Virus record (IMG/VR): IMGVR_UViG_2713896798_000006
Length of the DNA stretch: 25,620 nucleotides
Reading direction: 5' to 3' (one strand)
From: a virus
Lineage: Duplodnaviria; Heunggongvirae; Uroviricota; Caudoviricetes
In this document: positions 1-25,620 of the stretch, piece by piece
Layout: each line of letters opens with the position of its first letter
Position numbering within the stretch: position 1 is the stretch's first letter
The notes under the pieces: model-generated
Databases searched by the model: none
What the model was told of the DNA's origin: nothing
What the model saw: the letters and a program-made list of their open reading frames with translations, nothing else
Made by a program: the position numbers and the translations under genes

Positions 1-468
1 ATGCCAGATCAAAAAGAAAGTGAGAACACCAAACTCACTTGTGAAGAACAAAAGGATAATGAACTGGTTTCTCGAGTAATCGAAAATCCAGAGGTCTTAA
101 ACAGGGTTTTGGATAGTCCGCAGGTGCGGGCTATTGTTTGCCAGCATTTTCAGGGGCCTGTTCCGCCACCTTCAATGCTTAAAAAGTATGATCAACTGGT
201 GCCTGGGCTTGCAAATCGACTTGTTGAGTTGACCGAAAAAGAGCAGGCTCATCGCCATAAAACAGTGGCTGATAGCATTGATATTGCCAGAGATGGTCAA
301 ACAAAGGCTTTTTGGTTGGCAATATTGATCATCTTAGCTGCCACTGTCTTTGGCGTCATGGGGGAGACAGTTCTTGCCGGAACTCTCGTTTCAATAGATC
401 TTGTTGCATTGGTTACGGCATTTATTGTTGGAAAACATTATTCTAAGCAGGAACCTGATCAAGATTAG
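1..468 (+). CDS. Hypothetical protein with hydrophobic C-terminal segments (likely membrane anchored); ORF starts at the window edge so the N-terminus may be incomplete
   Basis: 155-aa ORF in the track; C-terminal stretch AFWLAILIILAATVFGVMGETVLAGTLVSIDLVALVTAFIVG is strongly hydrophobic; followed by a hairpin plus T-run. No family recognised. Confidence 0.4.
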   Translation: MPDQKESENTKLTCEEQKDNELVSRVIENPEVLNRVLDSPQVRAIVCQHFQGPVPPPSMLKKYDQLVPGLANRLVELTEKEQAHRHKTVADSIDIARDGQTKAFWLAILIILAATVFGVMGETVLAGTLVSIDLVALVTAFIVGKHYSKQEPDQD

Positions 469-544: not shown

Positions 545-1663
545 TCAAACAACCAATTTAACCCATTCCTGACCACGAGTATCGTTATAACGATCGGTGG
601 TTGCTTGGACTTTATGTCCCAGTAATGTTTTTGTATCAATACCCTGCGCGCGGTACAGTCGTTCTGACAGGGAGCGTTGTTCATGAAATGTTGGCGGAGT
701 TTTTCCTGCTGGTGGAGTTATCCCAGCCAGATCCCGTGCTTTGGCAAAGTAGTCGCTCAGGTTGTCTTTACTCATCGGCTTTGGTTGTTTCTGGTGCCGA
801 CTATGGATTAGATATGGACTTAATATTCTGTCTCGGCACCCATCAATAACTTCTTTTAACGTTATCCCAATGGCATCACAGCGTAGTGTAAGCGGTAACG
901 CCAGACGCATTCTGGTTTTTCCCTGGGTGATATGCAAGTGTTCGTTCCACACATCTGAAAAACGCATGTGGCAAATGTCATCACGGCGCTGACCAGTAAC
1001 AATCGCAAGAAGCATTGCGTTACGGATAAAGTGTTTTTCAGGCGTTGCGTTGTAAATTTTTTGCCAGTCTTCCAGGGTGAGTCTGGATCTGGTCACTTTA
1101 GGGATCGGTTTACGGGTAGCCTCCGGAGGATTCCATCCAGGAGGAACTTCCCCTGCATGCTGTGCTTCTTTATAAATATCAACCCATAATCCGCGATTTA
1201 CTCTTGCTGTGCTGACCATGTCTTTATCCATCCACTCGTCCAGTATTAATGCAAAGTCTCTTACCTCCAGTTCTTTCAATGGGTGGTTTCCCAGGCGGGA
1301 AACCAGGTATGCAGCCATTCGCACTTTTTCTTTGTGGGTTGTAGCTGCAATATCTCCATTTTTCAGTCGCGTGTCCTGTATTTTCAGATATCGATCAACC
1401 CATGCCTTTAATCTGATACCCCGACGTTTTGTTGCTGATGGACTTTCATCAATTTTGCGCATGAAATATTCAGCTTCTGCTGCAGCTATCCGCTGATTGG
1501 CTGTGGAAGCGATTTTTTCTGCCTTACCTTTGTCTGTTCCGAGTCCGTGAAATTTTCCAGTCACAGGATTTTTATACTGGTAGTAAACTCTGCCAGTTCT
1601 GCGATCAAACTTTTCGTAAAGACCGGCTACGTCAGTGCTGTTTTTTCGTGGCCTCGGTGACAT
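545..1663 (-). CDS. int: Tyrosine site-specific integrase, lambda Int family
   Basis: 372 aa; overall pattern and C-terminus (HEQRSLSERLY...LLGHK...RYNDTRGQEW) parallel lambda Int (HELRSLSARLY...LLGHK...YRDDRGREW); start overlaps the upstream xis-like ORF as in lambda. Confidence 0.9.
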   Translation of the reverse strand: MSPRPRKNSTDVAGLYEKFDRRTGRVYYQYKNPVTGKFHGLGTDKGKAEKIASTANQRIAAAEAEYFMRKIDESPSATKRRGIRLKAWVDRYLKIQDTRLKNGDIAATTHKEKVRMAAYLVSRLGNHPLKELEVRDFALILDEWMDKDMVSTARVNRGLWVDIYKEAQHAGEVPPGWNPPEATRKPIPKVTRSRLTLEDWQKIYNATPEKHFIRNAMLLAIVTGQRRDDICHMRFSDVWNEHLHITQGKTRMRLALPLTLRCDAIGITLKEVIDGCRDRILSPYLIHSRHQKQPKPMSKDNLSDYFAKARDLAGITPPAGKTPPTFHEQRSLSERLYRAQGIDTKTLLGHKVQATTDRYNDTRGQEWVKLVV

Positions 1664-1962: not shown

Positions 1963-4434
1963 TTAAAAATCAGCCTGACTCGGGATCAGTTTTTGCCAGA
2001 TAACTGAAACGTATTTTGCCTGGTAACGGGCGTCATCAAGTGCATTATGGCGCTCACCTTCGAATGGAATAGCCGTTCTGGCATCGAAGTCTATGGCTTT
2101 CCCCAGCTCAACGATTGTGCGTACATCGCGATCGTTGTAGTAACGCCACGGGCAGGGGATCCCCTGCCGTTCGTATGAACGGCGCAAAATCGTGTTGTCG
2201 AAGTTGGCTCCATTTCCCCAGACCTGAACAAAAAATTCACCGGAGTTTTCGTCGATAAATTCCCGCAATTGTAACAGTGCATCATCTAACGGGATTTCAT
2301 CGGTCATAATGGCAGATTGCGCTTCGCGTGATTGCTTAAGCCACCATTTAATGGTGTCCCGATCAATGACTCCGCCAGCAGTTTCCAGATCGATAGTCTT
2401 ACTAAATTCCGGTCCCATATCTCCGGTTTGCGGATCGAAAAATATTGCACCTATTGAGATGATCGGGGCATCAGGATTTTTTCCCATGGTTTCAAGGTCG
2501 ATCATTAGATGGTCACACGTCCTGCTGGTGGATGTGATTTCTTGATGACCGTTCACCTTAATTGAGTGATCTGCCGTCTCGCCAGTTTCATTATCGCTAT
2601 CGTGATGCTGATTGCCGCCAGTGTTCTCCTTGTGTGGATGTTCAGCGCCTTCCATTTTCTCCGGATCATCTTCCTGAACTTCAACCTGATACTCTTCATC
2701 GAATGTTTCCTGGTATGTTGCGTCGCCCATCACTGCGCCACAATCAGGGCAGTTGCCGCCGCCGGTCTGACCGCAGGCGGTGCAGACTTTTTCCACTTCC
2801 TGTTGCGCCACTGGTTCAGGCTGTTTCGTTTCTGGCTCGTTTTGTAACGCATTTGGGCTGTTTTGTTCCGCTTTTTGGTAGTTCCGTTCCGATTCATGCT
2901 GGTTCTGGTTTACAGAATCGCGGGTCTGGATCCCCTTAACCCATTTCGGATCATTCGGGTCGCTAATCCCTGCAACAAATTCTCCGCGAGAGGCAGCAAG
3001 CAACTTATCGGCGTCAGGCTGGCTGATATTGGCTGCCTGCATAATTTTGTTTACTTCGTCAGCGGTAACTTTTACCGGCTCTGGTTGTGCGGTCGTGTCA
3101 GATGCACCAGTATTTTGTTGTGAACCTGAGTATGTACTGTTTTTGCGGGCGAAATATTCTTCTTTCGTGATTTCAGTAGCCCCGGCAGCCAGTGCCTTAT
3201 CCAGACCAGAAAGTTTGTTTGCGCGACCGTATTTTTCGCCATCCTTGTCGGTGAAGAGGAAGTAGAACGGCCCCTCACGCTCTACAGATGGTTCGACTTC
3301 CACTTTGCATTCGGTTTTTTCGTTGTCCGGAATTGCCGTTTCCACTGCATCAGTTTCTGGTACTGGCGACGAGAGAGTATCAGTTGCGCTCTGATTTGTT
3401 CCTTCATCTTCAAACACGCCCTTTGTAGTCAGGTATTCAGTAATGTATTTGTTCAGTGCCACAGGGTCTTTGTGAATGTCGATCGGACGTTCACGGACAA
3501 GGCCAAAAATAGTCTGGCGGTCGTAGCGAAGGGCATCAGGCTGTTTGCGCATTGATGCCGAGATACGCTTCCAGTCTTCGCGGTCGTTGTCGATAACTTC
3601 ATTTTTTGCCCAGCGATGGATGCTGCCGTCAATGTTTCCGGCATCCACATCACCAGGCCAGAGAGCGTAGGCCAGTTCGTCATCCAGTGTTTTCCATGTC
3701 TGCTTGTATTCGCGATGAATGGCAGCAATGACCGGGCTGATTTTTCCTGTTGAATTTTCAGTGTGCTGTTGATTGGTTCTGGCGCGGGCGAGATCAACAA
3801 CAGACGTGTATTTTCCGGTTTCCTTGCGTTCACCTTCGCGACGTTTTTTCCAGATGCGCATCTCTGCCTGAATTTCGGGCCATTTGGCACCAGGCTTACA
3901 TTTATGCTTAACCCACCCGATGGCATGCAGCTTAAGCTCCGGATACATGGCGTTAACTTCTGGCATTTTCATCAACGCTTCAACGATATGTCCGTCGAAT
4001 GTTGCCATGTCTTCCTGCAACAATTCCTGTGCGCTAATAACCATATCAACGGTGATGTTTTCACATGTGTCGAACTTAACCATGACAGCGTTCTGTACTT
4101 CAGGGGCCAGCTTGTCAAAAGTGACGTTCATCGGATCTGATTCAGTCTCAACCGGAACAAAGGAAGCAGACTCCTCATCCCAGCGGTTTTCCTGCATATA
4201 TTCAGCATCCCATGAATCGAGGGCAGGGCGGGGTATGCCAGGTTTATCCTCGCAGATAATAAATTTATAAGCGCAGTCCTGAGCAGCCGGATAATGTTCC
4301 AGGAATTGCCAGTGAAATTTTGCTCGAGCACGGCGTTCGTCGCCAGCTTCAATAGCTGTGGCTACAGCGACTGCACCTTCTTCCTTTATTGCCTGTTCGT
4401 CCGGAATGGCGGCGCAAATAAAGACTTTACTCAT
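1963..4434 (-). CDS. Large early-region protein (823 aa) with C-terminal DnaQ-like DEDDh 3'-5' exonuclease domain, central Cys4 zinc ribbon and acidic/Gln-rich linker
   Basis: C-terminal motifs MIDLETMG (Exo I), WGNGANFDNTIL (Exo II), HNALDDARYQ (Exo III, His type); CTACGQTGGGNCPDCG zinc ribbon mid-protein. Sits where Qin carries ydfE; not RecE-like. Confidence 0.7.
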   Translation of the reverse strand: MSKVFICAAIPDEQAIKEEGAVAVATAIEAGDERRARAKFHWQFLEHYPAAQDCAYKFIICEDKPGIPRPALDSWDAEYMQENRWDEESASFVPVETESDPMNVTFDKLAPEVQNAVMVKFDTCENITVDMVISAQELLQEDMATFDGHIVEALMKMPEVNAMYPELKLHAIGWVKHKCKPGAKWPEIQAEMRIWKKRREGERKETGKYTSVVDLARARTNQQHTENSTGKISPVIAAIHREYKQTWKTLDDELAYALWPGDVDAGNIDGSIHRWAKNEVIDNDREDWKRISASMRKQPDALRYDRQTIFGLVRERPIDIHKDPVALNKYITEYLTTKGVFEDEGTNQSATDTLSSPVPETDAVETAIPDNEKTECKVEVEPSVEREGPFYFLFTDKDGEKYGRANKLSGLDKALAAGATEITKEEYFARKNSTYSGSQQNTGASDTTAQPEPVKVTADEVNKIMQAANISQPDADKLLAASRGEFVAGISDPNDPKWVKGIQTRDSVNQNQHESERNYQKAEQNSPNALQNEPETKQPEPVAQQEVEKVCTACGQTGGGNCPDCGAVMGDATYQETFDEEYQVEVQEDDPEKMEGAEHPHKENTGGNQHHDSDNETGETADHSIKVNGHQEITSTSRTCDHLMIDLETMGKNPDAPIISIGAIFFDPQTGDMGPEFSKTIDLETAGGVIDRDTIKWWLKQSREAQSAIMTDEIPLDDALLQLREFIDENSGEFFVQVWGNGANFDNTILRRSYERQGIPCPWRYYNDRDVRTIVELGKAIDFDARTAIPFEGERHNALDDARYQAKYVSVIWQKLIPSQADF

Positions 4435-4526
4435 TTTGTTTTACCTCATTACAGATTTAAGGGTGAACAAATCCCTGCCATTGCTGGCATATAAGAATGA
4501 AATCGGATGTTTATTACGGAACTGTT

Positions 4527-4718
4527 TTAAAGACCTGCCGGGATTTCGTTATTATCCTGGTGAATAACTTTATCGACCGGGTAACAGTTACCGGGAATTT
4601 TCTGTTCGGTTGCTGCAGTTACACACTCCTGCATTGTCCTGTGAACACTGACTGCAATATCAACTGGCTCTCCGGAAACAAGAAAAACTGTCAGAACAAG
4701 TGCAAATGCTGTATTCAT
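4527..4718 (-). CDS. ydfD: YdfD-like small protein (Qin prophage lysis protein family), 63 aa
   Basis: MNTAFALVLTVFLVSGEPVDIAVSVHRTMQEC...NCYPVDKVIHQDN.EIPAGL matches my recollection of K-12 YdfD; start overlaps the dicB stop by 4 nt. Confidence 0.65.
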   Translation of the reverse strand: MNTAFALVLTVFLVSGEPVDIAVSVHRTMQECVTAATEQKIPGNCYPVDKVIHQDNNEIPAGL

Positions 4719-4903
4719 TGCCAGCATCCTTTTTGCATCGGACGTAAACGGGCCAGCATTGAAAGAATGCATATTTTATTTAATAGCTCCCGTTCGTGTT
4801 TTCTCTTGTTAATGGCATCTTCAGTAAATACAGGGTTACTGATAGTGACACCAATTTCAAAACAACCTTCAGACGTATTAACGTTTGGTAATAACGTTTC
4901 CAT
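4715..4903 (-). CDS. dicB: Cell division inhibitor DicB (62 aa)
   Basis: METLLPNVNTSEGCFEIGVTISNPVFTEDAINKRK.ERELLNKICI.SMLARLR is near-identical to K-12 DicB as I recall it. Confidence 0.85.
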   Translation of the reverse strand: METLLPNVNTSEGCFEIGVTISNPVFTEDAINKRKHERELLNKICILSMLARLRPMQKGCWQ

Positions 4904-5078
4904 TATCGCGTCCTCAACAATGAATTTTGTGATGCAGTGCCTGGTGCCTCCAGGTGACGTTAACCAGTTAACAATTAACGCCGGATACAGAGCATTCCCG
5001 TTACGCCCGTAAAAGACCGCTTGTTTTAACTGTTCCGCGTGCGCTTAGCCGCATTCACCGCATCACAAAATTCACTTT

Positions 5079-5136
5079 AAAAAGGGCGGCAGAGCAGCCA
5101 CGGAGTAAAACTGATACCGCCAAACGTCACCAGAAA
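5079..5136 (-). ncRNA. dicF: DicF small RNA (ftsZ-targeting sRNA of the dicB operon)
   Basis: Reverse complement of 5084..5136 reads TTTCTGGTGACGTTTGGCGGTATCAGTTTTACTCCGTGGCTGCTCTGCCGCCC followed by TTTTT, matching the ~53-nt DicF sequence as I recall it; lies about 175 nt upstream of dicB. Confidence 0.8.
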
Positions 5137-5175
5137 ATTGATAACAGAGGGCGTTGCAGCGGGGTTGTCACTTAA

Positions 5176-6371
<1,196 letters not shown>

Positions 6372-6677
6372 TTAAGCGTATGGTCAACCTGACAACCCGG
6401 TGTCCTCAACGGGGGAAGGAATAACCCCGCCATACTTACCGCCGCGCCATTTCGCGGATTGCCACAACCGGAAGCGCACGGTCGACGAAAATTTAACGAC
6501 AGGCTATCTATGAACCAGCTACCTCGCCGTGCGCTTTCGCGTTATGGTCTGACTTTTCAGGGAAATATCCTTTCAGTAAACTGTCAGTGCCGGATGCTCA
6601 CCCGTGTCCGGCGCAAGCACTCCACCTCACCCGTGGAGAACTCCTTAATTACCAACCTTAGCTTCGTTGGTTAGCTA

Positions 6678-6896
6678 TTAACGCGGGTATGTAATCATTC
6701 TGGCAATGGTTAATGCCGCTGCTTTTTCCAGATTGGTGATATCCTGCTCCAGAGAGGACAGATTTTCAGCCTGCTTAGCCCTGACTTCATTAGCCCATTT
6801 CAGATCCTGCGCTGCATTAATTTTCTGGTGCATCCACTCATAAAGTTCATCATTGGTATAGTCTGGCGCGATGATGACGGGTTCTCGTTTCTGCAT
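6678..6896 (-). CDS. Small protein, 72 aa, in the position and size of Qin YdfC
   Basis: ORF follows ydfB-like with a GAGGAA ribosome-binding site; length and operon position match ydfC; sequence identity not verified. Confidence 0.5.
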   Translation of the reverse strand: MQKREPVIIAPDYTNDELYEWMHQKINAAQDLKWANEVRAKQAENLSSLEQDITNLEKAAALTIARMITYPR

Positions 6897-6925
6897 ACTG
6901 ATTCCTCGCGGTGCTGTTTCGCTTA

Positions 6926-7054
6926 TCAGCCATTAGATTTTGCCGAACTGGAAAGCACCTGTTTAAATTCGTTGAAGCTGTGAGCTTCTTCGCCTTCGGC
7001 AAGGCCTTCGAAGTATTCTTCGTAAGCCTTTTCCATGATTGTGTCGAAATCCAT
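6926..7054 (-). CDS. ydfB: YdfB-like small protein (42 aa)
   Basis: Not in the ORF track (under 60 aa); manual translation MDFDTIMEKAYEEYFEGLAEGEEAHSFNEFKQVLSSSAKSNG; start ATG lies 1 nt after the ydfA stop (tight coupling). Confidence 0.55.
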   Translation of the reverse strand: MDFDTIMEKAYEEYFEGLAEGEEAHSFNEFKQVLSSSAKSNG

Positions 7055-7055
7055 A

Positions 7056-7211
7056 TCACCCACCTGAATTTCTTTCCAGCCAGCGACGCGCTCCAGATTC
7101 GGTTTTAAACGTTTTGCTTTTGGTATACGTCATTGCGGTGAACGTACCGTACTGGTTGGGGAACACGCCACATACCAGAGATTCGCTGTTGCCAAGATCG
7201 ATAGTATCCAT
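7056..7211 (-). CDS. ydfA: YdfA-like small protein (51 aa)
   Basis: C-terminal 51 aa of track ORF 7056..7292: MDTIDLGNSESLVCGVFPNQYGTFTAMTYTKSKTFKTESGARRWLERNSGG, matching my recollection of K-12 YdfA. Confidence 0.6.
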   Translation of the reverse strand: MDTIDLGNSESLVCGVFPNQYGTFTAMTYTKSKTFKTESGARRWLERNSGG

Positions 7212-7392
7212 GCTGACCTCATTTCCCCTTAACGCCGGGGTAGCGGAACAAAAACCTGCTGCATAGTTATTAAAGTTGAACCCTGCCGTCATGTTCTTAC
7301 GCCTCGGGCTGGCTACTTAACCCGTGACCACTGCCTGGTAACTCGAGGTATTGCCCTGTATTGTGTGGGACGGGATGGGTTGGTATGGGAAA

Positions 7393-7434
7393 ACTATAGG
7401 AAATGCCTAATTACTTGTCAATAGGCTATGCCTA
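7393..7434 (-). promoter_or_regulatory. Leftward PL-like promoter with overlapping operator palindrome, predicted to drive ydfA-ydfB-ydfC-dicF-dicB-ydfD
   Basis: Minus strand reads TTGACA (plus 7416..7421), 17-bp spacer, TATAGT (plus 7393..7398); operator TAGGCTATGCCTA at 7422..7434 abuts the -35 and a half-site GCCTAAT lies in the spacer. Confidence 0.5.
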
Positions 7435-7529
7435 ATAATTTGGGCGCAACCTAATAGGTGATGGTTTGTGGAAGAGGTAGTAGGAGTTAACTAACGGGAA
7501 CTAGGAATTTCCCGTCGGACCATATAAGT

Positions 7530-8006
7530 TTAAGTTCCTGTCTTGGTGATGTTCTGGCTTTTCCGTTTTGATTCTTGATTTTTCAGATAGTTAGCTACCT
7601 TCATTTCCATTGCGGCAATGTAGGCGCGAACGTCATGATCAACCCAACTAGGCTCCGTAGCATTTCCAGATAAGATGAAAGCCACAATTGCTCTTTTTTC
7701 ATCAGAGGCGGCTTGATAAAGGCTGTTTATGTCTAAAAGTTCACTTTTTGTATCTGAAGTGGATGGGGTTGGTATGGGGTATTCGTTAAGCCCCCAATGC
7801 TCTGGACCAACCACATCAGAAAAGAAACGCCATAGTTCTGGAAGTTTGTCTTTACTTATCGAACCTTTCTTAATCCAGTCATGGATTGATGGTGGTTGGA
7901 CTTTGAAATGACGTGCGATTTCCGCCTTTGATTTGACGGCTCCTGATGCAATTTTTTTGTTAATGGCCTGCTCTATCGCTCGGCCTAAGTCTTTACCACT
8001 AAGCAT
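7530..8006 (-). CDS. Prophage repressor, HTH DNA-binding protein (158 aa; RacR-like by size and context)
   Basis: N-terminal HTH-like segment SKAEIARHFKVQPPSIHDWIKKG; flanked on both sides by operator palindromes; divergent from a Cro-position gene. Confidence 0.65.
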   Translation of the reverse strand: MLSGKDLGRAIEQAINKKIASGAVKSKAEIARHFKVQPPSIHDWIKKGSISKDKLPELWRFFSDVVGPEHWGLNEYPIPTPSTSDTKSELLDINSLYQAASDEKRAIVAFILSGNATEPSWVDHDVRAYIAAMEMKVANYLKNQESKRKSQNITKTGT

Positions 8007-12693: not shown

Positions 12694-12908
12694 GGTAAAA
12701 ACGGTTTGCGGTAAAGCGAGAGTTAAGTAGAATTGCTGCGGGTGCTTGAGGCTGTCTGCCTCGGGCATGCCACCGTAAGGCAGACAGAGAAAAGCCCCAG
12801 TTAACATTACGCGTCCTGCAAGACGCCTAACATTAATCTGAGGCCAATTTCATGCTAGACATATGTAGGTTAGCCTCTTACGCGCCGAAAGGCAAGGAGA
12901 AGCAGGCT

Positions 12909-13064
12909 ATGAAGCAGCAAAAGGCGATGTTAATCGCCCTGATCGTCATCTGTATCACCGTCATAGTGACGGCACTGGTAACGAGGAAAGACCTCTGCGA
13001 GGTACGAATCCGAACCGGCCAGACGGAGGTCGCTGTCTTCACAGCTTACGAACCTGAGGAGTAA
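12909..13064 (+). CDS. hokD: Hok/Gef family type I toxin (51 aa)
   Basis: MKQQKAMLIALIVICITVIVTALVTRKDLCEVRIRTGQTEVAVFTAYEPEE is essentially K-12 HokD as I recall it; followed by a terminator; the track ORF extends upstream in frame from 12852. Confidence 0.85.
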   Translation: MKQQKAMLIALIVICITVIVTALVTRKDLCEVRIRTGQTEVAVFTAYEPEE

Positions 13065-16530: not shown

Positions 16531-16695
16531 TTTTTTTGTTTACTGTTTATTAAAAATACTACTGCATGGTGAATCCCCCTGTGCGGAGGGGCAATCAGCA
16601 ACCAGGTATATGTGATAATCGCGGATTCAGGTGCTGATACTGAATTCACCGGGAGGCACCCGGCACCATGCAAGAAAAAGAATGTGCATGCAAAC

Positions 16696-16723
16696 ATGCC
16701 CCTCTCCTGAGGGGCATTTTTAT
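16696..16723 (+). terminator. Rho-independent terminator (plus strand)
   Basis: 9-bp stem ATGCCCCTC/GAGGGGCAT, loop tcct, then ttttta. Confidence 0.55.
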
Positions 16724-16724
16724 G

Positions 16725-16752
16725 GGTAAAAAATGCCCGAATGGGTTCGGGC
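16725..16752 (-). terminator. Rho-independent terminator (minus strand), back to back with the plus-strand one
   Basis: Stem gcccgaa/ttcgggc with loop tggg; on the minus strand it is followed by the U-run complementary to ggtaaaaaat. Confidence 0.4.
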
Positions 16753-16848
16753 AATAGCATGAGATACTGATATTGTTGTGTTGTTATCGTGTGGATTTTA
16801 ACCAGGGTTTATCAGGCTGCGCAACTGCGTGGCCTTTTTTCATTTCTT

Positions 16849-16936: not shown

Positions 16937-18787
16937 ATGACATTTAAACATTATGATGTTGTCAGGGCGGCGTCGCCGTCAGACCTTGCGGAAAAGCTGA
17001 CACACAAACTGAAAGAGGGCTGGCAGCCGTTTGGTAGTCCGGTGGCCATAACCCCTTATACCCTGATGCAGGCGATTACAGCAGAAGGTGATGTGGTGGT
17101 CAGTGGTGCAACTGAGCCGGAGTGGTACTACGTCATCGTACTGGCCGGGCAGTCCAATGCCATGGCTTACGGTGAAGGGCTTCCGCTGCCGGATTCATAC
17201 GATGCTCCGGATCCGCGCATTAAACAGCTGGCGCGCCGCAGTACAGTGACGCCGGGTGGGGCTGCCTGCAGATATAACGATATTATTCCGGCCGACCACT
17301 GCCTGCATGATGTGCAGGATATGAGTACGCTGAATCATCCGAAGGCAGACCTGAGCAAAGGGCAGTACGGCTGTGTCGGCCAGGGGTTACATATTGCCAA
17401 AAAACTGCTCCCGTATATCCCGAATAACGCGGGGATCCTGCTGGTACCATGCTGTCGTGGTGGTTCGGCATTTACCCAGGGCGCGGAGGGGACATTCAGT
17501 GCGGACACGGGGGCCAGCCAGGATTCGGCGCGCTGGGGTGTGGGTAAACCGTTATATCAGGACCTGATTGCGCGCACCAAAGCTGCATTACAGAAGAACC
17601 CGAAAAATGTGTTGCTGGCGGTGTGCTGGATGCAGGGAGAGTTTGACATGAGCGCCGCCACCCACGCACAGCAACCTGCGCTGTTTACAGCCATGCTGAC
17701 ACAGTTTCGTGCTGACCTCTCCGTGTTTAACGCGCAGTGCCATGGTGGCAGTGCTGCAGATGTGCCGTGGATTTGTGGTGACACGACGTATTACTGGAAA
17801 AATACATACGCTACCCAGTACGACACCGTGTACGGCGGGTATAAAAACAGGGAGAGTGAGGGCGTTTATTTTGTGCCCTTCATGACAGACGGTAACGGCG
17901 TCAATACCGCCACTAACGCGCCGGCAGAAGATCCGGATATTCCGGCATCAGGATATTACGGTGCGGCATCGAGAACGAATGGAAACCAGGTATCATCAAA
18001 CCGCCCGACACATTTCAGTTCATGGGCGCGCAGGAGCATTATTCCGGATCGTCTGGCAACCGCTATTCTGAACGCAGCCGGGCGCACCTCAGCCTTCATC
18101 AGTGGTAAGGCACCGGAAATCAAACCCTCGCCCGGCGGCAACACGCCATCGGGTCCGTCTGCAGATACGTCCGTTCGCACAATCTCCCTGCTGCCGGCAG
18201 CCGGAGAGGCTGCTGCGCAGGGCTGGAGCATTAAGGATGGCGGAATTCAGTTGTCAGATGGTGTATTTAAGATCACCAAGCAGAGCAATAAAACCTGGTC
18301 CCTGACGCATCCGGTGGATGACGCAATTACCCTGCTGACACAGGGCGGCAGACTGACCTGTAAGTTCCGCCTGTCAGGCGCACTGACCAACAATCAGTTC
18401 GGGCTGGGGATTTATCTGTATACGGATGCTCCCGTTCCTGATGGTGTGGCGATGACGGGTACCGGTAATCCGTTCCTGATGTCGTACTTCACTCAGACCA
18501 CTGACGGCAGAGTGAATCTGATGCATCACAGGAAAGCCGGAAACACGAAGCTGGGGGAGTTCGGCGATTACGGTAACGACTGGCAGACGCTGGAGCTGGT
18601 GTTCACCGCCGGCAGTGCCACGGTTACTCCGAAACTGAATGGAGTGGCTGGCCCGGCATTCCAGGTTATAAAAGACAGTCTGACACTGGGACTGAATGCG
18701 CTGACGCTGACGGATGTTACAAAAAATGCAGCGTATGGCGTTGAGATAGAAAGTCTGATGCTGGAGATAAATGCACCGGCAGCATAA
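16937..18787 (+). CDS. Prophage sialate O-acetylesterase-like protein (NanS-p type; SGNH/SASA hydrolase with N- and C-terminal extra domains)
   Basis: 616 aa; GQSNAMAYGEG motif early in the hydrolase domain; located between the Q-like gene and the holin, the usual site of nanS-p genes in EHEC lambdoid prophages. Confidence 0.6.
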   Translation: MTFKHYDVVRAASPSDLAEKLTHKLKEGWQPFGSPVAITPYTLMQAITAEGDVVVSGATEPEWYYVIVLAGQSNAMAYGEGLPLPDSYDAPDPRIKQLARRSTVTPGGAACRYNDIIPADHCLHDVQDMSTLNHPKADLSKGQYGCVGQGLHIAKKLLPYIPNNAGILLVPCCRGGSAFTQGAEGTFSADTGASQDSARWGVGKPLYQDLIARTKAALQKNPKNVLLAVCWMQGEFDMSAATHAQQPALFTAMLTQFRADLSVFNAQCHGGSAADVPWICGDTTYYWKNTYATQYDTVYGGYKNRESEGVYFVPFMTDGNGVNTATNAPAEDPDIPASGYYGAASRTNGNQVSSNRPTHFSSWARRSIIPDRLATAILNAAGRTSAFISGKAPEIKPSPGGNTPSGPSADTSVRTISLLPAAGEAAAQGWSIKDGGIQLSDGVFKITKQSNKTWSLTHPVDDAITLLTQGGRLTCKFRLSGALTNNQFGLGIYLYTDAPVPDGVAMTGTGNPFLMSYFTQTTDGRVNLMHHRKAGNTKLGEFGDYGNDWQTLELVFTAGSATVTPKLNGVAGPAFQVIKDSLTLGLNALTLTDVTKNAAYGVEIESLMLEINAPAA

Positions 18788-18999: not shown

Positions 19000-19034
19000 G
19001 CCGTCAGTGGGTGACACTGGCGGCTTTTTGTTTT
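19000..19034 (+). terminator. Intrinsic terminator immediately upstream of the holin gene
   Basis: Stem GCCGTCAGTG/CACTGGCGGC (one mismatch) with loop ggtga followed by tttttgtttt. Confidence 0.5.
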
Positions 19035-19079
19035 CCTTTACTTTCATTTTCTGTCGGCGGTGACGGAGACATACATCAG

Positions 19080-19286
19080 ATGGAAAAAATCACAACAGGT
19101 GTGTCATACACCACGTCAGCGGTAGGGACGGGATACTGGTTACTGCAACTGCTGGACAAAGTCTCTCCGTCCCAGTGGGTGGCAATAGGTGTGCTGGGGA
19201 GTCTGCTGTTTGGCCTGCTGACGTATCTGACTAACCTTTATTTCAAGATTAAAGAAGATAAGCGTAAGGTGGCGCGGGGAGAGTAG
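19080..19286 (+). CDS. Holin, phage 21 S-type pinholin
   Basis: [68 protein letters not shown] closely parallels S21 as I recall it. Confidence 0.8.
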
Positions 19287-19351
19287 TCGATGAATAAACA
19301 ATACGAACTGGTTGTAAAATGGTAAGCGTCAACGGAGCACCGTATTGACGC

Positions 19352-20965
19352 TTATTTATTGGTGAGTACTACGTTCCATGGCAGGAGTTCGTCAACTCGG
19401 TTGGAAGGCCATTCCGGCAGTACGCTCAGGATATGGCGCAGATACGCTTCCGGATCGATACCGTTCAGACGGCAGGTGCCGATCAGCCCGTACAACAGTG
19501 CTCCACGCTCGCCGCCGTGATCGCTGCCAAAGAACATAAAGTTTTTCTTTCCGAGACAGACTGCACGAAGCGCTCTTTCCGCAGCATTATTATCCGCCTC
19601 CGCCAGACCGTCATCACTGTAATAACAGAGGGCATCCCACTGATTCAGTACATAGCTGAACGCTTCGCCCAGTCTGGATTTTTTCGACAGCGTACCATTC
19701 TTCTCCACCATCCATTCATGCAGCGACGTCAGTAACACTTTGCTTCGCTGCTGCCTGACGGCAAGACGCTCTGACTCCGGTAATCCCCGTATTTCATCCT
19801 CGATGGCGTACAGTTCACTGATTCGCTTCAGGGCTTCTTCTGCCGTCGCACTTTTGCTGCTGATGTATACATCGTGGATTTTTCGCCGGGCATGGGCCCA
19901 GCACGCAACTTCTGTCAGTGCACCACCTTCACGTTCTGCACTGAACAACCTGTCGTAACCTGTGAACGCATCCGCCTGCAGGATACCCCGGAAGGGGCGG
20001 AGGTGTTGCTCCGGGTGTTTCCCCTGCCGGTTCGGCGAGTACGCGAACCAGACCGCTGGAGGAGATGACGAACCCACATTGCGATCATCCCGGACATACG
20101 TCCAGATACGCCCTGTTTTCGCCTTTTTCTGACCCGGTGCCAGTACCTTTACCGGTGTGTCATCAGTGTGAACCTTGCGGGTGTTCATTACATAACGGTA
20201 CAGGGCATCATTCACCGGTGTCATTAACTGGCAGCACGCGTCAACCCAGTTGGAGAGTAAGGCCCGGCTCAGTTCGACACCCTGGCGGGCAAAGATTTCA
20301 CTCTGACGATACAGTGGCAGATGTTCGCAGTATTTTCCCGTTAACACGCGGGCAAGTAATCCGGGGCCCGCGATACCACGCTCTATCGGGCGGGACGGCG
20401 CCGGTGCTTCAACAATACAGTCACATTTTGTACAGGCTTTTTTTACCCGTTCTGTGCGGATCACTTTCAGGGCACTGCTCACCAGTTCCAGCTGTTCAGC
20501 GCTGACTTCCCCCAGATAATCCAGCTCACCGCCACACTCCGGGCAACAGCTTTCTTCTGGCTCCAGGCGGTGTATTTCACGGGGAAGGTGTGCCGGTAAC
20601 GGACGACGATGGCGCGACTGTCGCAACTGGCGGGGAACCTGAGGATCGTCTTCCCGCCCACTGTAACGATCGCTGTCCTGTTCACGTTGTTTCAGCAGAG
20701 CCTCAGCCAGTTCAACTTCACGACGCAGTTTTTCAGAACGGGTACCGAACAGCATCCGGCGCAGTTTTTCTATCTGAGCCCGCAGATGTTCTATTTCCCG
20801 TTCATCTTCTTCGATCTTTTCTTCGGCACGTGTCAGTGCAGAGCGCAGGAAGGCTTCCGTCTCTTCAACCAGACTCAGTTGCTGGTCTTTCTGACGGAGG
20901 GCTTCAGCCTGCTCAGAGAGCAACCTTTCCAGCTCTGCGATGCGAATGAGGTATTTCTGACTCAT
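19352..20965 (-). CDS. IS66-family transposase (TnpC, 537 aa)
   Basis: N-terminal coiled-coil/leucine-zipper region, Cys-rich zinc-binding segment (CPECGG...CTKCDC) and length typical of IS66 TnpC. Confidence 0.85.
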   Translation of the reverse strand: MSQKYLIRIAELERLLSEQAEALRQKDQQLSLVEETEAFLRSALTRAEEKIEEDEREIEHLRAQIEKLRRMLFGTRSEKLRREVELAEALLKQREQDSDRYSGREDDPQVPRQLRQSRHRRPLPAHLPREIHRLEPEESCCPECGGELDYLGEVSAEQLELVSSALKVIRTERVKKACTKCDCIVEAPAPSRPIERGIAGPGLLARVLTGKYCEHLPLYRQSEIFARQGVELSRALLSNWVDACCQLMTPVNDALYRYVMNTRKVHTDDTPVKVLAPGQKKAKTGRIWTYVRDDRNVGSSSPPAVWFAYSPNRQGKHPEQHLRPFRGILQADAFTGYDRLFSAEREGGALTEVACWAHARRKIHDVYISSKSATAEEALKRISELYAIEDEIRGLPESERLAVRQQRSKVLLTSLHEWMVEKNGTLSKKSRLGEAFSYVLNQWDALCYYSDDGLAEADNNAAERALRAVCLGKKNFMFFGSDHGGERGALLYGLIGTCRLNGIDPEAYLRHILSVLPEWPSNRVDELLPWNVVLTNK

Positions 20966-20995
20966 GACCGTTTTTATAATGCGGTCAGGAGTTTT

Positions 20996-21346
20996 TTACA
21001 ACATTGTCAGTGAGTTACGGCTGGATGTTTTTGGCTGACGCCAGTCCAGCTTATCGAGGAGCATTGCCAGTTGCGAGCGGGTAATGGATACCTTGCCGTC
21101 ACGTACCGCAGGCCAGATAAACTGGCCTTCCTCCAGGCGTTTGGTGAACAGGCACAGACCATCAGCATCAGCCCAAAGAATTTTGACGGTGTCACCCCGT
21201 CGGCCACGGAAGATAAACAGGTGACCGGAGAAGGGATTATCATTCAGCACATGTTGTACCTGTTCTCCCAGTCCGTTGAAGGATTTACGCATATCGGTAA
21301 CGCCGGCAACGAGCCAGATACGGGTACCTGATGGGAGTGAGATCAT
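20996..21346 (-). CDS. IS66-family accessory protein TnpB (116 aa)
   Basis: MISLPSGTRIWLVAGVTDMRKSFNGL... typical IS66 Orf2; overlaps tnpA stop. Confidence 0.8.
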   Translation of the reverse strand: MISLPSGTRIWLVAGVTDMRKSFNGLGEQVQHVLNDNPFSGHLFIFRGRRGDTVKILWADADGLCLFTKRLEEGQFIWPAVRDGKVSITRSQLAMLLDKLDWRQPKTSSRNSLTML

Positions 21347-21768
21347 CTTCCCCTCCCGGTCAGTTCACGGATCAACACTGTGAGCAGCTCTGGCGATGGA
21401 TTTTCCAGCGTCATGTTACCGTGACGGAATTCCACCTTGCAGGAACTGGCACTGACTCTGGTCTGAGTGGAAGTGGATAAAGACGGCGCAATGGCCGCCA
21501 CAGGTTCTTTCTGCTCATCCGGCGTTATTTCTACAGGTAATAATTCAACGCCAGTGTCAGAAGAGGTCGTTACCGGAAGACGCCGCGAAACACGCCCTTC
21601 GTTCTGCCAGAGCCTGAGCCATTTGAAAATAACATTATCATTGACGCCATTTTCACGTGCAATCTGTGCAACACAAGCTCCAGGTTGTGATGCCAGTTCC
21701 ACCATACGAAGTTTGAATTCATTCGAATAGTTTTTACGAGGTTCTTTTCGCCAGTCCTGTAATTCCAT
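21343..21768 (-). CDS. IS66-family accessory protein TnpA (141 aa)
   Basis: HTH-containing first ORF of the IS66 operon, immediately upstream of and overlapping tnpB. Confidence 0.75.
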   Translation of the reverse strand: MELQDWRKEPRKNYSNEFKLRMVELASQPGACVAQIARENGVNDNVIFKWLRLWQNEGRVSRRLPVTTSSDTGVELLPVEITPDEQKEPVAAIAPSLSTSTQTRVSASSCKVEFRHGNMTLENPSPELLTVLIRELTGRGR

Positions 21769-22081
21769 ACTTAGATGTCCGTCTATATCAGATGGGCGTC
21801 TAAGTTACCAATTCTCGTCTGATGGCTACATACGGCGGTCAGTTTACGCTTACGTAAAATGAATATTTCTAACTGAAAAAACGTTCCATGAGGTGAGAAA
21901 AGGTCACAGGCAATCAATAACAGGACGTGATGAAAGACCCTTGCATTTGTGCGCTTTCTCTTTAGATAGCAGCAGATACTGAAAATCTGAGTTGTCGGGG
22001 AGTCAGGGATACAGCTGTGCAAGAGTTGGTCATTGTGATTCCATTGAAATCCTGTATGCCATGAAGGGCAGGATTTTATGG

Positions 22082-24189: not shown

Positions 24190-24922
24190 GCGACCTTATT
24201 ATTCATGCGCGGTATTGTCGCCGTATTCCTGCATTAACAGAGACCGCAGCCCGACCGGGAGAATCCTCTGCGCGAGTGTGCGGGGATAATCAAAAACGAT
24301 ACACACCGGGGTTTACCGCGTTAACGGAGCGCGGCGTTGTCCCCTCATGGTCGCTGGTCCGGTGCGATGGTGGAAGAAGCCGGATGTTTATCACTATTAA
24401 TTGATAACACAGAAATGGATTCATTGATTTTCAGCACGTTTTTGTATTCGTATTATTGAACATCTGTTTATTTTACTTTTAACATATTGATAATAAAAAG
24501 AGCTGTAAATCTTTAGATGAGTCGATTTTGTCCGGGGAAGTTCAAATGGATTTTATGCTGACGGTTTCTGGTGTGGTTATCCTGTCCATTGCTTATACTG
24601 CAGATAAATATGGCTGCCATTTGTTATCACGTATTGGCGCTTATTGCTCGTTGATGCTGATTTTCTCGTCGCTTTTTTTTGAGTAAGTTATATTAATTAT
24701 AACAAATAATTTTCTGTGTTTTTTCAGGCTATCCCGTCAGACGGGAAGCCTGTACTGCCGGGGGACGAATGGAAAACTGATGTGTCCGGTAACTGTGTGT
24801 TCTGTGAACACCATGTTACTTAATTATGTAATTCATACCCGAACGCTCTGTTGACAGCCTTCTTCTGCAGGCTTCAATAACCCACGCTGAAAAGTTACCG
24901 GAACCTTGGTAATGACTCCAAC

Positions 24923-25426
24923 TTATTGATAGTGTTTTATGTTCAGATAATGCCCGATGACTTTGTCATGCAGCTCCACCGATTTTGAGAACGACAGCGA
25001 CTTCCGTCCCAGCCGTGCCAGGTGCTGCCTCAGATTCAGGTTATGCCGCTCAATTCGCTGCGTATATCGCTTGCTGATTACGTGCAGCTTTCCCTTCAGG
25101 CGGGATTCATACAGCGGCCAGCCATCCGTCATCCATATCACCACGTCAAAGGGTGACAGCAGGCTCATAAGACGCCCCAGCGTCGCCATAGTGCGTTCAC
25201 CGAATACGTGCGCAACAACCGTCTTCCGGAGCCTGTCATACGCGTAAAACAGCCAGCGCTGGCGCGATTTAGCACCGACATAGCCCCACTGTTCGTCCAT
25301 TTCCGCGCAGACGATGACGTCACTGCCCGGCTGTATGCGCGAGGTTACCGACTGCGGCCTGAGTTTTTTAAATGGCGGAAAATCGTGTTGAGGCCAACGC
25401 CCATAATGCGGGCGGTTGCCCGGCAT
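24923..25426 (-). CDS. insB: IS1 InsB
   Basis: 167 aa, [58 protein letters not shown]... Confidence 0.9.
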
Positions 25427-25620
25427 CCAACGCCATTCATGGCCATATCAATGATTTTCTGGTGCGTACCGGGTTGAGAAGCGGTGTAAGTGAACTGCAG
25501 TTGCCATGTTTTACGGCAGTGAGAGCAGAGATAGCGCTGATGTCCGGCGGTGCTTTTGCCGTTACGCACCACCCCGTCAGTAGCTGAACAGGAGGGACAG
25601 CTGATAGAAACAGAAGCCAC
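25345..25620 (-). CDS. insA: IS1 InsA
   Basis: 91 aa, [43 protein letters not shown]...; start codon at the last base of the window. Confidence 0.9.

Follow-up and report, generated by a model that had tools for sequence, protein, structure and literature searches.

A known dicF-dicB-ydfD prophage module, very probably split only recently by ISKpn26 at a TTAA that IS5-family elements seem to prefer

The window analysed here, a stretch of 25,620 nucleotides from a Caudoviricetes record (IMGVR_UViG_2713896798_000006), carries on its minus strand the small RNA DicF followed by the genes dicB and ydfD, with an insertion sequence and further genes of a lambdoid early-left operon upstream of them (Table 1). 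The first-pass annotation, made from the letters alone, had proposed on this strand DicF with its terminator, a full-length DicB and a YdfD-like reading frame overlapping the dicB stop, all downstream of an IS5, and had called their retention notable. For DicF the proposal was borne out by cmscan, which matched Rfam family RF00039 at 5084..5135(-), scoring 75 bits where the gathering score is 48 (E = 4e-15) and extending over the whole of the model (positions 1-52/52), and by alignment to the K-12 annotation, which gave DicF as 5136..5084 followed by a T-run at 5083..5079; the terminator scan placed a stem at 5101..5086 that runs into CCTTTTT. In K-12, DicF is an Hfq-binding sRNA whose 3' part blocks translation of ftsZ and which also represses xylR and pykA. 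The DicF of the window differs from that of K-12 by a single change, A39G, nucleotides 1-38 being identical. In the Rfam stem the change replaces U-A by U-G with pairing kept, the predicted self-fold energy is -15.4 kcal/mol versus -15.9 kcal/mol for K-12, and the predicted duplex with ftsZ (-60..+30 of the K-12 gene) has an energy of -38.5 kcal/mol for both variants, because the base sits in an interior loop of the duplex; a functional effect of A39G was rejected on these grounds. Directly upstream, the 35-nt native leader holds the AU-rich sequence at the RNase E processing site and matches K-12 exactly, and the predicted accessibility around the DicF 5' end and this site is 0.34 in the IS context versus 0.32 in the native one. 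Once the IS is removed, DicF lies 3' of ydfC and 5' of dicB in a lambdoid early-left operon.

Table 1. Features of the interrupted operon, in window coordinates.
Feature	Position	Strand	Evidence
ydfD, 63 aa, DUF1482	4527..4718	-	PF07358 88 bits; 94% identity to K-12 YdfD
dicB, 62 aa	4715..4903	-	PF05358 129 bits; 90% identity to K-12 DicB
DicF sRNA, 53 nt, with terminator hairpin	5084..5136	-	Rfam RF00039, terminator scan, K-12 alignment
Native leader, 35 nt, between IS and DicF	5137..5171	-	identical to K-12
TTAA target-site duplication, downstream copy, -39 to -36 of DicF 5' end	5172..5175	.	sequence
ISKpn26 (IS5 family), 1196 bp	5176..6371	-	inverted repeats GGAAGGTGCGAA(C/T)AAG; annotation as ISKpn26-family transposase
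IS transposase gene, 326 aa, reading towards dicF	5323..6303	-	DDE_Tnp_1 123 bits, DUF772 75.5 bits
TTAA target-site duplication, upstream copy	6372..6375	.	sequence
ydfC-dicF spacer, structured, upstream part of DicF precursor	6376..6677	-	fold of IS-free sequence
ydfC, 72 aa	6678..6896	-	collinear with K-12 ydfC; annotated ydfC in SCPM loci
ydfB, 42 aa	6926..7054	-	collinear with K-12 ydfB
ydfA, 51 aa, DUF1391	7056..7211	-	PF07151 90.8 bits; collinear with K-12 ydfA
Promoter-like TTGACA-17-TATAGT upstream of ydfA, presumed dicBp equivalent	7393..7421	-	consensus scan
RacR-type repressor gene, 158 aa, at the position of dicA in Qin	7530..8006	-	ORF; racR annotation
Exonuclease gene, 823 aa, full length, next in leftward operon	1963..4434	-	Pfam, SCPM annotation

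DicB was likewise found to be full length with its frame intact, residues 1-62 aligning to HMM positions 1-62/62 of PF05358 (129.2 bits). It shares 56/62 residues with K-12 DicB, the exceptions being K2E, Q36H, V47L, L55P, P57Q and A61W, and three of these six (L55P, P57Q and A61W) fall within the last eight residues. The same DicB allele (WP_016241178.1) is annotated in both SCPM genomes described below, and at the nucleotide level the 741-nt region has matches of 99.9-100% in IS-free prophages of the O103/O111 type. The YdfD-like frame is also full length and agrees with K-12 YdfD at 59/63 residues; its ATG overlaps the TGA of dicB by 4 nt (ATGA, 4715..4718), as proposed and as in K-12, and the mechanical ORF list gave it as an 81-aa frame (4527..4772) because an in-frame ATG lies upstream. 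Alignment of dicF, dicB and ydfD to their K-12 counterparts revealed no frameshift in either gene; paired indels near the 3' end of dicB in the DNA alignment proved to be substitutions, and the proteins align without gaps. A poor DicF alignment and frameshifts in the two genes, which the first-pass annotation had named as refuting outcomes, were thus both absent. In K-12, DicB inhibits cell division in a MinC-dependent manner and inhibits the ManYZ phage receptor (PMC6832061), and K-12 YdfD is reported to cause lysis through a block of the IspG step of isoprenoid synthesis (PMC8835842). The module is already known, its products being textbook prophage products present in most E. coli.

The likeness to K-12 extends upstream. 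When the IS and one TTAA copy were removed and the remaining sequence was aligned to the Qin prophage of MG1655, ydfA-ydfB-ydfC-dicF-dicB-ydfD was collinear with Qin at 1558/1632 positions (95.5%) and without a frameshift in any ORF. The window shares with the Qin dicBF operon (ydfA-ydfB-ydfC-dicF-dicB-ydfD-ydfE) the gene order, the dicB/ydfD overlap and the structured spacer between ydfC and dicF, but it has a RacR-type repressor where Qin has DicA, its exonuclease, xis and int are intact whereas ydfE and intQ of K-12 are pseudogenes, the former truncated by IS2, and its operon is split by ISKpn26 just 5' of dicF. It also differs from Qin by a variable patch between dicF and dicB (~4990..5022, minus strand), where about 30 nt are replaced by sequence that cannot be aligned with K-12, with a net change in length, within surroundings that are >95% identical. 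The exonuclease, next in the leftward operon, carries a Rv2179c-like 3'-5' exonuclease domain at residues 642-813 (226.6 bits). The repressor gene is annotated as racR (WP_000948452.1) in the identical SCPM loci, which also have ydaS/ydaT-like genes transcribed divergently; the 158-aa protein gave no Pfam match. The TTGACA-17-TATAGT site upstream of ydfA fits the consensus at 11/12 positions and is the sole minus-strand match in 4400..7600, and by analogy with K-12 dicBp (PMC10448788) we presume that it acts as its equivalent; judging from its position, the RacR-type repressor would control this promoter. The motif ATTAGG(C/T) occurs three times around or overlapping the promoter (7393..7470, minus strand, between racR and ydfA), and these copies are possibly operators of the repressor.

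The element upstream of dicF is ISKpn26. Its ends are GGAAGGTGCGAA(C/T)AAG with TTAA on each side, a perfect duplication, and it has the features of the IS5 family: a length of ~1.2 kb, 16-bp terminal inverted repeats, one DDE transposase and a 4-bp YTAR duplication. It is identical to ISKpn26 copies elsewhere (1196/1196) and 92% identical to true IS5 (1103/1199), so that the earlier statement of an upstream IS5 interrupting the operon stands as regards the family and the interruption and has to be corrected as regards the element. When the IS-free RNA was folded, the position 137 nt upstream of DicF coincided with a long helix near 6473, and the IS lies between this expected RNase III stem and DicF, within the 190-nt RNase III precursor; therefore the only known promoter, upstream of ydfA, is 1.2 kb farther away. 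The minus-strand consensus scan of 4400..7600 predicted no promoter-like site in the right end of the IS or in the leader, and an outward or hybrid promoter at either place thus gained no support from it; for K-12, too, no internal promoter is reported (PMC10448788). From the transposase stop codon to dicF, the terminator scan predicted no minus-strand intrinsic terminator.

These features can be set against the route by which DicF is made in K-12, where it comes only from a polycistronic transcript that starts at dicBp upstream of ydfA, no internal promoter for it was found in the operon, and DicF, DicB and YdfD are all made only from this repressor-controlled promoter; RNase III yields a 190-nt species with its 5' end 137 nt upstream of DicF, and RNase E then makes the 53-nt DicF (PMC10448788, Ragunathan et al. 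2023). By comparison with the 190-nt product, an RNase III cut would be expected in the long spacer stem of the window near 6473. We take the segment to be the dicF-dicB-ydfD part of a lambdoid early-left ('dicBF') operon; the prophage, located by potC, is of the O103:H2 12009 type and has a RacR-type repressor in the place of DicA. The 1196-bp ISKpn26 landed in the TTAA at -39 to -36, on the DicF side of the expected RNase III site. It leaves the leader and its RNase E site whole and lies between DicF and both the promoter and the expected RNase III stem. The insertion is probably polar, both on dicF-dicB-ydfD and on the exonuclease, xis and int that follow. It would in this way uncouple both the module and exo-xis-int from repressor-controlled induction, and this probable uncoupling, read from the arrangement of the genes, bears on prophage excision and host filamentation. 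Residual DicF would stem from read-through of transcripts of the IS or of the promoter; an outward promoter borne by the IS below the threshold of the consensus scan, or read-through across the IS5-family element, may contribute, and read-through RNA, in which the DicF terminator and the RNase E site are preserved, could still mature to DicF.

The prophage as a whole is near-identical to one located by potC in E. coli SCPM-O-B-7615 (raw milk, Russia) and in SCPM-O-B-9504. With the IS elements left aside, prophages of O103:H2 strain 12009 and its relatives, which belong to the lambdoid prophages of EHEC/STEC, agree with it at 99.8% identity. Isolated lambdoid phages carry the dicF-dicB-ydfD block at 92-96% identity (mEp460 at 96%, Tritos, with DicF annotated, at 95%). 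The dicF/dicB copies of the EHEC/STEC prophages and of the isolated phages are uninterrupted, whereas the block of the window is cut from the early-left promoter by the IS. The block is present in 4664/5426 complete E. coli genomes, at 2 places in the median genome, at 9 at most and at 4 in the closest genome, and multiple dicF/dicB copies per genome are the rule (PMC5069750). The IS/dicF junction, by comparison, was found in only 3/5426 genomes, at 100% identity only in the two SCPM genomes, and a metagenome scan for it gave 0 matches. The reconstructed empty site matched in 4010 genomes, in one of them (RM8385) at 200/200 positions, and the flank from dicF to ydfD is 100% identical over 737 nt to an IS-free prophage of OkiPb01711. 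By all appearances the insertion took place very recently and within a single lineage, the two SCPM strains; its recent date is indicated by the perfect duplication, by an IS that shows no difference from other copies and by flanks that are 99.8-100% identical to IS-free prophages. The genes downstream are intact because there has been no time for decay since the insertion. The view of the first-pass annotation that their retention is notable is accordingly not supported, the module being near-universal and no decay being expected after a recent insertion; a fresh IS upstream of the module says nothing about selection for its retention.

A different feature of the insertion is its position. 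The TTAA at -39 to -36 of dicF is occupied by an IS5-family element in at least four separate contexts. Two IS species are involved, ISKpn26 and true IS5; the insertions occur in both orientations and in the company of three different immunity regions. In strain F95 (France), true IS5 lies at this TTAA in the same orientation as in the window, with TTAA on both sides (locus positions 2903..4104), in a prophage whose repressor differs and in which kil takes the place of dicB-ydfD after dicF. The F95 locus shows mosaic exchange of division inhibitors behind a K-12-like dicF; the kil region lies at 4372..4593 of the locus, and two extra ORFs are found between ydfC and the structured spacer (2033..2768). 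In strain B379 (China), true IS5 lies in the opposite orientation in a Qin-like prophage with DicA/DicC, again with TTAA on both sides (locus positions 2903..4104). Two IMG/VR contigs have ISKpn26 with the same junction and orientation (locus positions 1191..1221 and 207..237), and their flank from dicF to ydfD is only 94.8% identical to the window, with a difference 28 nt from the IS. Beyond the other end of the IS (from 2401 and 1417 onward, respectively), these contigs continue with TTAG and unrelated DNA and then with the hok region, and ydfABC, the repressor and the replication genes are absent, which looks like a later IS-mediated deletion or recombination between IS copies.

Since a search with a single junction is biased to that site, composite queries were built from the operon and the IS ends, such that any operon interrupted by an IS5-family element must outrank the uninterrupted ones. 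Among the matches listed, the ydfA-ydfD query (1574 nt, 25 YTAR sites) ranked only B379 and the SCPM pair first; with the ydfA-dicF query (1030 nt, 16 YTAR sites) F95 joined these at the top, and no other genome did. No IS5-family element was seen at the other 15-24 YTAR sites of the operon among the matches listed from 5426 genomes, in surveys whose reach was operons of ~93% identity to the query and above. For two further independent insertions at the seed site, uniform use of the 16 YTAR sites of ydfA-dicF gives a probability of (1/16)^2, ~0.004, which is our rough estimate for the matches listed and for operons of at least ~93% identity. In an IMG/VR sample of prophage insertions, 109/125 flanks of IS5-family ends begin with YTAR and no site was seen more than twice; TTAA was the least used of the four YTAR tetramers (10/109). 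An extended target consensus was rejected as the cause of a hotspot, since the 105 unique flanks of this sample hold at most 0.3 bit beyond YTAR, and this small amount of information would fit a structural determinant of targeting. The TTAA sits in a small hairpin formed by a 9-bp inverted repeat, but its DNA fold is weak (-7.2 kcal/mol, z = -1.58), and a cruciform or hairpin as the cause was likewise set aside as suggestive at most. The recurrence suggests that the TTAA near dicF is a local hotspot of IS5-family elements, on the strength of three to four events, and a single TTAA used by two such elements in unrelated prophages is a candidate for the study of IS5 targeting beyond YTAR. A literature search for dicF, ydfC or dicB together with IS5 found nothing relevant.

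In light of these data, we regard it as very likely that the locus is a known prophage module, recently split by ISKpn26, at a site that is probably preferred by IS5-family elements. If instead the IS were fully polar, the three genes would be silent and bound to decay, and the recurrent use of the site would be coincidental. This we consider rather unlikely: K-12 has a single promoter and no internal one (PMC10448788), the prophage gathers IS insertions such as the IS66 in the lysis region, and the IMG/VR contigs have lost everything from ISKpn26 at this site to the hok region, all of which would agree with silent genes on their way to loss, but the transposase reads towards dicF with no terminator predicted between them, so complete silence is not assured, and the coincidence has the low probability, rough as it is, that was estimated above for uniform use of the YTAR sites.

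Selection for the insertion itself offers another explanation for the recurrence. IS5 puts glpFK, flhDC, bgl and fucAO under IS-dependent, stress-responsive control, and at the IS5 hotspots upstream of flhDC, glpFK, bglGFB and fucAO the insertion activates a silent promoter, often in one orientation. The dicF site resembles these loci in that IS5-family elements have inserted repeatedly at one YTAR in a regulatory non-coding region; it differs from them in lying inside a transcription unit, 3' of the sole known promoter, and in being used in both orientations. An insertion that removed the module from induction control, or placed it under a comparable IS-dependent and stress-responsive control, could have been selected, with the host keeping low-level gains such as protection by DicB from phages that use ManYZ and being spared lethal bursts. 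A benefit of DicB against phage infection is documented (PMC6832061), the same TTAA was taken independently at least three to four times with no other YTAR of the operon used among the matches listed, and its being the least-used tetramer means that sequence preference alone does not predict the site; however, both orientations occur, no promoter-like site is predicted in the right end of the IS or the leader and K-12 offers no internal promoter that could be enhanced, each event is confined to one or two genomes without clonal spread, and any site in ydfABC would give a polar block, so that selection for silencing does not explain the exact position. We hold this account to be very improbable. 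A combination of the two, in which the TTAA is a true hotspot and the insertions are kept since the rewiring frees the toxic module from its repressor, leaving it silenced or under control of the IS, also appears quite improbable; if it were true, E. coli would have in the rewiring at this TTAA a repeatedly used means of taming the division inhibitors of its prophages. Selection is a less likely cause than a preference of the elements for this target, given that they are found in both orientations and that an insertion anywhere in ydfABC would be just as polar, and it is target preference that we retain in our reading of the locus as a recently split module.

Elsewhere in the window, the prophage is accumulating IS insertions. 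An IS66-family element (ISEc23-like, with tnpA, tnpB and the transposase on the minus strand) lies in the lysis region at 19319..21853 and is directly preceded by a short holin-like ORF (19011..19286); the record of SCPM-O-B-7615 has two nested IS66 elements in this region, whereas the window has one. The DUF6645 ORF at 16937..18787(+) is intact in the window and frameshifted in SCPM-O-B-7615. IS copies abound in the closest genomes: the 200-nt query of the IS/dicF junction matched 24 places in one and at least 40 in the other. Positions 24908..25000, the portion of the last ~700 nt (24908..25620) that was covered by a query ending at 25000, matched none of the listed records. Rfam matches above the gathering score were also obtained for sok at 12740..12914(+), beside hokD (114 bits), for STnc100 at 16538..16727(+) (148 bits) and for the anti-GcvB sRNA AgvB at 16728..16789(-) (96.5 bits, a perfect match to the consensus), the latter two adjoining on opposite strands 3' of the antiterminator gene.
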